A stretch of DNA of 64,000 bases from Ginglymostoma cirratum (taxonomy: Eukaryota). Within the stretch, counting starts at the first letter, position 1, and each line of letters opens with the position of its first letter. The stretch lies in the NCBI GenBank assembly GCA_024137785.1, contig JAHRHZ010000062.1, positions 22,502,015-22,566,014 on the forward strand. The letters are read 5' to 3'. Of the stretch, positions 6,910 to 57,415 are shown in pieces. The position numbers and the translations under genes were made by a program. A model generated the notes under the pieces. It did no database searches and was not told the DNA's origin. It worked only from the letters and a program-made list of their open reading frames with translations.

Positions 6910-7044
6910 CCCAGGTGCTGCTTGAAAGGATGGGCGAGCGATACCTGGTAGGCCCAGCTTATGCTGGATGGTTGTTGCTGATACAATCTGTGCAGAAGAC
7001 ATTGCCGCCATGCTCTGAAGGGCTTTATCCTTCACTGCTTGATC
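6910..7044 (-). CDS. TEAD1: TEAD1 coding exon DQAVKDKALQSMAAMSSAQIVSATTIQHKLGLPGIARPSFQAAPG
   Basis: 135 nt within ORF 6820..7092; acceptor ttcaAG, donor GTAAGT. KLGLPGI.RP.F..APG is TEAD1-like among the paralogs. Confidence 0.96.
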
Positions 7045-11460: not shown

Positions 11461-11600
11461 ACATGGGAAGCAGACAAGGCAAGGCAAGGCAAGGTGGGGG
11501 GCAGGGGACATGCAGGGGTGGCAAGGAATGAGCAGGCTGGCATGCGGACCACGCAACCACTGTTTCAGAATGGCAGGCAGGCAGGCAGCAGCAAGCCTTC
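11461..11600 (-). promoter_or_regulatory. Intronic splicing-regulatory cluster downstream of the VTNM microexon
   Basis: On the pre-mRNA strand: TGCATG (11509-14) and GCATG (11541-45), which are RBFOX motifs, plus runs of YGCY (MBNL motif) from (CCTTG)n and GCTTGCTGCTGCCTGCCTGCCTGCC. Confidence 0.6.
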
Positions 11601-11726: not shown

Positions 11727-11738
11727 CATGTTGGTTAC
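11727..11738 (-). CDS. TEAD1: TEAD1 12-nt alternative microexon, VTNM
   Basis: Minus strand reads ...ttgcaaacAG|GTA ACC AAC ATG|GTAAGT. Frame-preserving, and at the position of the mammalian TEAD1 VTSM microexon. Confidence 0.9.
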
Positions 11739-16421: not shown

Positions 16422-16543
16422 AAAGGAATGATACAGTCAGAGAAAGTTTCAACATAGGATAAGGGCACTCTCTGTGGAAGAGGGAAAAAAAAAAAGAGGT
16501 CAGAAGCATAGCAACTGCAAGCCCAAAGCAGACAAGCGCATAC

Positions 16544-16606
16544 CTTTAGCTTGGAATGAATCTCACGAGATTTCCTTCTGGCAAGAACCTGAATGTGACT
16601 AGACAC
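16544..16606 (-). CDS. TEAD1: TEAD1 TEA helix-3 exon B (canonical type), VSSHIQVLARRKSREIHSKLK
   Basis: 63 nt; long pyrimidine tract then ttAG (16607-08), donor AAG|GTATGC. Closely matches mammalian TEAD1 VSSHIQVLARRKSRDFHSKLK. Confidence 0.96.
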
Positions 16607-16700
16607 CTAAAGGGTAGGGGAAGGGAGGAAAACAAAGAGAAAAAAAAAGCCTGTAACCATGGAAACAAAAGCCCCTTGCAACTAGGCGAGCCAGACGTAC

Positions 16701-16763
16701 CTTTATGGCAGCTTGAATTTCCCGAACTTTCTTCCTTGCTAACACCTGTATGTGACTAGACAC
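16701..16763 (-). CDS. TEAD1: TEAD1 alternative TEA helix-3 exon A, VSSHIQVLARKKVREIQAAIK
   Basis: 63 nt, open frame; acceptor gtgtAG (16764-65), donor AAG|GTACGT (16699-700). Paralogous to the adjacent exon at 16544-16606. Not shown in the ORF track. Confidence 0.88.
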
Positions 16764-20403: not shown

Positions 20404-20468
20404 CTGCTTCCTAGTGCGTGTCTTCCCTGTTCTTAGCTTGATATACCTGGCTATCAACTCATTACGAC
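20404..20468 (-). CDS. TEAD1: TEAD1 coding exon, TEA domain (G)RNELIARYIKLRTGKTRTRKQ
   Basis: Manual translation gives the invariant TEA segment. 65 nt; acceptor ttgcAG (20469-70), donor GTaaaa (20402-03); phase 1 to phase 0, as in the known TEAD exon structure. Confidence 0.97.
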
Positions 20469-56400: not shown

Positions 56401-57415
56401 GGAAAATATTCAGCCTAGAGTCCGGTTACTAGTGGTGTGCCACAAGGATCTGTTTTGGGACCACTGCTGTTTGTCATTTTTATAAATGACTTGGACGCAG
56501 GCATAGGTGGATGGGTTAATAAGTTTGCAGATGACACTAAAGTCGGTGGAGTGGTGGACAGTGTGGAAGAATGTTGCAGGGAGACTTTGGATAAACTGCA
56601 GAATTGGGCTGAAAGGTGGCAAATGGAGTTCAATGCAGATAAATGTGAGGTGATGCACTTTGGGAAGAATAATAGGAAGGCAGAATACTGGGTCAATGGC
56701 AAGATTCTTGGTAGTGTGGATGTGCAGAGGGATCTTGGTGTCCAGGTACATAGATCCCTGAAAGTTGCCACCCAGGTTGATAGTGCTGTTAAGAGGGCAT
56801 ACAGTGTGTTAGGTTTCATTGGTAGAGGGATTGAGTTCCGGGGCCATGATGTCATGCTGCAACTGTACAAAACGCTAGTGCGGCCTCACTTGGAATACTG
56901 CGTACAGTTCTGGTCGCCCCATTACAGGAAGGATGTGGAAGCATTCGAAAAGGTGCAGAGGAGATTTACCAGGATGTTGCTTGGTCTGGAGCGAAGGTCT
57001 TATGAGGAAAGGCTGAGGGACTTGGGTCTGTTCTCATTGGAGAGAAGGCGGCTAAGAGGGGATTTAATAGAGACATACAAAATGATCAGAGGATTAGATA
57101 GGGTGGACAGTGAGAGTCTTTTTCCGAGGATGATGACATCGGCTAGTACGAGGGGGCATAGCTGCAAATTGAGGGGTGACAGATTTAAGACAGATGTCAG
57201 AGGCAGGTTCTTTACTCAGAGAGTGGTAAGGGCGTGGAATGCCCTGCCTGCCAATGTAGTTAACTCAGCCACATTAGGGGCATTTAAACAGTCCTTGGAT
57301 AAGCATATGGATGATGATGGGATAGTGTAGGGGGATGGGCTTAGATTAGTTCACAGGTCGGCGCAACATCGAGGGCCGAAGGGCCTGTTCTGCACTGTAT
57401 TGTTCTATGTTCTAT
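56400..57415 (+). mobile_element. Young 5'-truncated CR1 (HER1-like) LINE with open RT C-terminal frame
   Basis: ORF 56437..57330 (297 aa) contains PQGSVLGPLLF, KFADDTK and LYKTLVRPHLEYCVQFWSPHY. Ends in (TGTTCTA)2. Confidence 0.96.

Follow-up and report, generated by a model that had tools for sequence, protein, structure and literature searches.

Two exons of equal length stand side by side in the TEAD1 gene of the shark Ginglymostoma cirratum and encode, twice over, the same segment of helix H3 and its adjoining basic cluster, which raises the question of whether this transcription factor holds two versions of its DNA-recognition helix, how the two are used, and when the second was acquired. 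The preliminary description of the locus had answered that a tandem duplication provides two interchangeable recognition helices, spliced as a mutually exclusive switch of DNA binding or nuclear import, and had dated the event to early gnathostomes. The window analyzed here, the whole stretch of 64,000 nucleotides (contig JAHRHZ010000062.1, positions 22,502,015 to 22,566,014), upholds the structure of the pair and corrects its age, its effect on the protein and the strictness of its splicing.

The exon pair and its gene

Both exons are 63 nt long and of phase 0, each with AG before and GT after, and the intron between them is 94 nt, as first described; the end of the upstream exon at 20404 likewise agrees with the exon mapping. 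The features of the region, all on the minus strand, are:

20404..20468, minus strand: upstream TEAD1 exon, 65 nt; GRNELIARYIKLRTGKTRTRKQ; H2, the beginning of H3 and the RK that forms the N-terminal part of the bipartite NLS; PF01285 match
16701..16763, minus strand: exon A, the derived copy, 63 nt; the rest of H3 with a KKVR basic cluster and no RRxS site; peptide VSSHIQVLARKKVREIQAAIK
16607..16700, minus strand: A-B intron, 94 nt; a long pyrimidine tract, the 42 nt before B's acceptor being free of AG
16544..16606, minus strand: exon B, the ancestral-type copy, 63 nt; completes H3 and includes RRKS, which holds Ser102, in human TEAD1 the PKA site; peptide VSSHIQVLARRKSREIHSKLK
6910..7044, minus strand: next full exon, phase 0; DQAVKDKALQSM...AAPG

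Adjacent, equal in length and phase, and with intact splice sites, the two copies form a tandem homologous exon pair. Over codons 1-10 they differ at five codons, all five synonymously and at exactly the codon pairs named earlier, and past codon 10 they diverge as described, with six amino-acid changes within codons 11-21. A chance likeness is excluded, because among the 127,870 windows of 21 codons in the six frames of the window the exon A peptide scores 96 against itself, 72 against exon B and no higher than 29 anywhere else. Joined together, the exons add 63 + 63 nt and keep the frame, so that exclusion enforced by frameshift and NMD does not apply to them.

The identification of the gene as TEAD1 is secured by the scores of its YBD exon, by exon mapping and by clade placement. 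The YBD exon reaches 93 bits against human TEF-1, compared with 74 for TEF-3, 64 for TEF-5 and 57 for TEF-4; the shark TEAD1 protein P0124 maps to the locus exon by exon at 87-100% per exon and is placed in the TEAD1 clade with support 100/99; and the domain exons match PF01285 (TEA) and PF17725. Elsewhere in the window, inside TEAD1's long upstream intron, an open frame of 303 codons (56419-57330, plus strand) encodes a reverse transcriptase in its C-terminal portion (PF00078, E 1.4e-12) and is probably a truncated LINE of CR1 type.

Conservation and age of the duplication

Absence of exon A from other chondrichthyans and bony vertebrates would have told against the preliminary description; the opposite is seen, as exon A is conserved in both. 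Its peptide is the same as the shark's in 161 of 174 TEAD1-type A peptides (isoforms of one species counted separately), drawn from chimaera, rays, sturgeon, teleosts, frogs, reptiles, birds, platypus and placentals, and the suspicion that the exon itself might not be new was right, since TEAD1 annotations, from those of rays to those of mammals, contain the identical peptide. Each copy is conserved across species and is nearer its orthologue than its neighbor. By these sequence comparisons both copies are intact and under selection.

At least three TEAD genes and five helix-3 exons are present in this genome by pattern and family searches, which set lower bounds, and two of the paralogue exons have 100% matches among whale-shark protein models. 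The TEAD3 gene (on C271) carries the same A/B pair, 86 nt apart, and the third gene (on C8) has a single B-type helix-3 exon. That third gene, at C8:21181248-21249423 on the minus strand, is annotated in chondrichthyans as 'TEF-1-like'; in a tree of 27 chosen rows built on the region after the helix-3 exons it groups with coelacanth TEAD2 (support 100/95), and by this grouping it is probably the shark TEAD2. A hidden or decayed exon A was sought in it over 22 kb, a span that starts at the upstream exon and runs past the next full one, and none was found; the best other score there was 23 against 72-100. TEAD4 was not found in this genome by the same pattern and family searches, which give lower bounds only; its absence may stem from a gap in the assembly, from the limits of the search or from loss of the gene.

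Given that A resembles A and B resembles B across genes (over 63 nt, 53 identities between TEAD1 A and TEAD3 A and 57 between the two B exons, compared with 45 between A and B of TEAD1), the duplication must be older than the split of TEAD1 and TEAD3. Further, a lamprey TEAD cluster carries both types, with KKMREFQTSIK for A and RKSREFQAKLK for B; its 15 listed proteins comprise four with both exons, five with B, two with A and four with neither. The duplication thus predates the lamprey split, and the early-gnathostome date first proposed is too young, since shark TEAD3 and a lamprey TEAD have the same pair. Invertebrate TEADs are of the B type in all 22 retrieved, a set without any amphioxus or tunicate protein, which marks B as ancestral. 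Taken together, the sequences indicate one duplication common to a lamprey TEAD and to both TEAD1 and TEAD3 of the shark and predating jawed vertebrates, in which B is the ancestral type, A the derived one, and TEAD2 kept B alone. Among teleosts, the tead1a / TEF-1a proteins printed are all B-only and the A-containing models belong to the other copy, a distribution that suggests that exon A was lost once more after the teleost duplication. The cluster of P0305, which mixes TEAD1a with alpha-parvin proteins, probably because of a fused gene model, was left out of the counts.

Predicted consequences for the protein

The segment is indeed the TEA helix H3 with its basic/NLS cluster, and it corresponds to residues 98-118 of TEAD4 in the DNA complex 5GZB. 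H3 is the helix that reads the DNA major groove (PMC5876656). The notion of two DNA-recognition helices nevertheless goes too far: codons 1-10, the half of the helix that reads DNA bases, encode the same residues, among them codon 3, the equivalent of the TEAD4 residue S100 that is required for DNA binding, and the Pfam TEA match ends at exon codon 9. With an invariant first half and a TEA match that stops at codon 9, exchange of the exons alters only the C-terminal extension of H3.

A difference in nuclear import between A and B forms is similarly unlikely, as both copies keep four of the five basic residues of the NLS cluster, and a difference in NLS strength is ruled out by these basic-residue counts. 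By residue comparison with the bipartite NLS defined in Scalloped (PMC3121794), A and B each complete such a signal. An effect of the two exons together on nuclear import is another matter and has some support in mouse.

What does distinguish the copies is a short stretch in which A has RKKV where B has RRKS, so that Ser102 is absent from A; S102 maps to codon 13 of B, within RRKS, given a length of 426 residues for human TEAD1. On residue comparison, the clear functional difference between A and B would lie here. S102 is given as the PKA site of TEAD1 (PMC13335116), and PKA phosphorylation is reported to inhibit TEAD1 DNA binding (PMC6628201); the first of these sources also describes the mutants S102A and S102D as leaving TEAD1 condensates unaltered. 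A TEAD1 containing A alone would escape PKA control at Ser102 and would have a changed outer end of H3. The serine is also missing from shark TEAD3-B (RRKA) and from many invertebrate B-types (RRKL, RRKA), so that PKA control cannot have been what first favored the duplication. Consequently, the PKA-site idea bears on the present use of the pair in TEAD1 and not on its origin.

Where both exons are joined, structure prediction places A in the H3 slot, and B would extend the helix as a second basic helix. The predicted A+B model P0069 has a single helix at 69-115, with a pLDDT near 90 in exon A and of 71-79 in exon B, and its A aligns to TEAD4 98-118 of 5GZB (Z 10.8, rmsd 2.4, 91 aligned). The single-sequence fold of full-length A+B P0097, of low overall confidence (mean pLDDT 45), was used for the TEA region alone.

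Intron elements and proposed splicing control

Comparison of the introns among paralogues points to two conserved elements, both on the minus strand:

16650..16662, minus strand: motif CCATGGTTACAGG, conserved in the intron; its A at 16654, 47 nt downstream of the donor of exon A, is the candidate branch adenosine
16514..16543, minus strand: start of the intron after exon B; 26/30 nt the same as in TEAD3, 8/30 with TEAD2

The motif stands at the same +47 in shark TEAD3, with 32 of 39 columns identical and none of 2000 shuffles as good, and it is not present upstream of the single TEAD2 exon. Downstream of position 16654 come the pyrimidine tract and the 42-nt AG-free zone, as expected of a branch point, which makes this adenosine a candidate for that role. 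Branch points follow the consensus yUnAy, and at -3 of that consensus the motif has a G and no pyrimidine. It is recognizable in 68 of 69 TEAD1-type intron read-through proteins, and in 65 of the 69 its A falls between +45 and +50, in a set that is mostly teleost and redundant and was retrieved with a query containing intron letters; the exact motif occurs in none of six bony-vertebrate TEAD3 read-throughs. The element after exon B is likely, from its conservation, to be regulatory in splicing, and both elements are common to TEAD1 and TEAD3 and lost in TEAD2. Likewise, pS is 0.20 between the B exons of TEAD1 and TEAD3 as against 0.77 between TEAD1 B and TEAD2 (about 14 sites), and such synonymous-site conservation between the alternatively spliced paralogues may reflect selection on splicing.

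Steric interference is expected where a branch point lies less than 50 bp from the donor (Hatje et al., PMC5740500). The candidate branch point at +47, positioned by sequence and conserved in two paralogues, is just inside this limit, and a branch point for B located 47 nt after A's donor would cause partial steric interference. Joining of A to B would then be disfavored, yet not barred, which fits the many models that retain the A-B intron, and, with both exons multiples of 3, no frameshift would remove the A+B messages. Control by RNA pairing of the docking-site/selector kind was considered and rejected, since a possible TEAD1 duplex, for which 9 of 500 shuffles do as well, is not preserved in TEAD3, where 399 of 500 do; other pairings of the flanking introns are at chance level. 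In the cluster of the teleost TEAD1 P0053, 11 of 15 listed models retain a 90-nt A-B intron in frame, giving A, 30 aa and B. Retention of the 94-nt shark intron would shift the frame.

How the exons are used

Annotated proteins attest three arrangements. Six clusters seeded from A+B proteins, with 15 members listed per cluster of 39-520, contain 84 listed non-seed members, of which 15 have A, 27 B, 27 A+B, 10 A+intron+B and five neither. The chondrichthyan TEAD1 proteins (n = 28, annotations from other sharks and rays) divide into 12 with B, eight with A and eight with both, and A-only and B-only substitution isoforms are annotated in these animals. Spliced A+B models, mostly predicted (XP_) entries, occur in rays, catshark, frogs, birds, crocodile, mammals and lamprey, and also in TEAD3. 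Retrieval by a distant exon, regardless of the pair, gives a different view of each gene: the TEAD1-type proteins among the best 120 hits comprise 35 with B, eight with A and none of 43 with A+B, and the TEAD3 proteins among the best 120 include 20 of 55 with A+B (the two sets being the best 120 of 2958 and the best 120 of 2128 hits). In five Logan-assembled proteins from relatives (P0423, P0004, P0006, P0026, P0066), A follows straight on the upstream exon; P0423 is full-length A-only, and the other four retain the A-B intron.

In mouse, a preprint (10.64898/2026.04.17.719138) presents a full-length Tead1 (ENSMUST00000059768) in which a 63-nt exon 4 precedes exon 5, and numbers a serine 123 (102 + 21); on overexpression the form with exon 4 is nuclear, and the form without it is partly cytoplasmic in some cells. 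From its length and position, mouse exon 4 would be exon A. The proposal of a mutually exclusive switch is accordingly only half sustained: alternative use is evident in the A-only and B-only models, but strict exclusion is doubtful, as A+B accounts for four of 15 lamprey proteins and for eight of the 15 members listed in the shark/ray TEAD1 cluster, whose seed was itself an A+B protein.

The probable explanation is a tandem duplication of the helix-3 exon whose copies are spliced as a leaky either/or pair, so that B-only, A-only and A+B proteins all arise. It is unlikely that the pair is strictly mutually exclusive, with only A-only and B-only mRNAs functional and the A+B models no more than annotation artefacts or splicing noise. 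Such strictness would suit a candidate branch point inside the <50-nt steric range, the cataloguing of human TEAD3 as a substitution event (PMC8373072), the lack of A+B among the 43 TEAD1 proteins retrieved regardless of these exons, and the frequency with which the A-B intron stays unspliced in teleost models; it is hard to reconcile with spliced A+B models from lamprey to mammals and in TEAD3, or with a mouse Ensembl transcript that has both exons and serves as the full length. The strict-MXE catalogue (PMC5740500) rejects pairs with in-frame joining reads, and TEAD1 and TEAD3 were not found in the available content of its ten supplement files, which speaks against strictness as well.

A quite unlikely account makes A an add-on cassette before a near-constitutive B, lengthening H3 and supplying a second basic cluster for nuclear retention or DNA affinity. 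B-only is the commonest form, the A+B model predicts a continuous helix, and the mouse localization, although resting on overexpression in one preprint, points the same way; but A-only models are widespread (15 of the 84, together with P0423), the human TEAD3 reference form is A-only (PMC8373072), and a purely additive role leaves the full, invariant recognition half of A unexplained. That A and B confer different DNA sequence specificity, the headline of the preliminary description, is highly improbable: H3 is the major-groove helix, but codons 1-10 are identical, including the residue equivalent to TEAD4 S100, and the differences begin beyond the Pfam TEA match. A change of affinity between A and B is plausible, and a change of motif is not supported. 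TEF-1 beta and gamma isoforms, presumably corresponding to exons A and B, are said to have been described in Biochemistry in 2000 by Jiang et al. as having an altered affinity through substituted or inserted residues that directly follow the DNA-binding domain. A leaky either/or pair remains the preferred reading.

Relation to known systems

The human TEAD3 pair is catalogued as a tandem exon duplication with Vertebrata as last common ancestor (Martinez Gomez et al. 2021, PMC8373072), where its presence in the lists of Lam et al. and of Kondrashov and Koonin is noted too. The entry resembles shark TEAD1 in exon position, in the 21 aa encoded, in the order of A then B and in KKVR versus RKSR, and differs in an A-B intron of 189 nt by the listed coordinates, compared with 94 nt; the table has no row for TEAD1 and, in the portion available, the paper makes no statement of a common origin with it. 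RefSeq/UniProt models of shark and ray TEAD1 have the same A peptide in the three arrangements (XP_048462764.1 A-only, XP_043561584.1 B, XP_051884966.1 A+B), these entries being gene models. The mouse preprint treats Tead1 exon 4 as a skipped exon, and the section available is silent on duplication of exon 5. The SCN-alpha exons 5a/5b offer a parallel in a duplication older than the paralogues and in ancestral intronic splicing elements, although they belong to another gene family and are described as mutually exclusive.

A further alternative exon of the same gene lies in the window:

11727..11738, minus strand: microexon VTNM, 12 nt, orthologue of human TEAD1 exon 6 (VTSM); TGCATG at 11514, 213 nt downstream

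The RBFOX2-regulated exon 6 of TEAD1 (PMC9410899) thus has its orthologue and a downstream TGCATG, a motif of the RBFOX type, here, but it is a four-residue cassette affecting YAP binding and involves no duplicated exon; alternative TEAD1 exon 5 is mentioned just briefly in the available text of that paper. Four-residue inserts at the microexon site also occur in TEAD3 (AMNV/AMNL), TEAD2-type proteins (AINM/TINM) and lamprey (GMNM), so that the microexon is older than the paralogues.

TEAD was not found in the text and one supplement of PMC9741552 or in the main text of PMC4417111, and the available parts of PMC5867882 and PMC8694039 hold nothing on helix-3 exons. Within the open-access literature, subscription journals lying outside it, nothing was found that traces the TEAD1 and TEAD3 pairs to one origin or that describes the +47 motif or the loss of S102 in A.

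Implications

The exon pair is real, ancient, functional and already on record, and as a known pair its shark copy adds little; the interest lies in its common origin before gnathostomes, in the intron element fixed at +47 and in the proposed PKA-site switch. A broader scenario may be sketched tentatively. The first vertebrate TEAD may have gained a second helix-3 exon together with a branch point that has since stayed, over some 500 million years, about 47 nt from its donor, creating a tunable three-state switch (B, A and A+B). In TEAD1 this switch would decide whether the DNA-docking helix has an inhibitory PKA site, and splicing might so free Hippo/TEAD1 output from cAMP signaling in certain tissues; TEAD2, and TEAD4 to judge by the known protein, would have fixed B, and the TEAD3 reference form is A. 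Comparison of the paralogues provides two leads in this direction, a conserved branch-point-like motif whose spacing is constant between TEAD1 and TEAD3, and a PKA site that may be controlled by splicing. Most work on TEAD1 uses the B-only protein, and the conserved exon A changes the end of H3 and removes Ser102.
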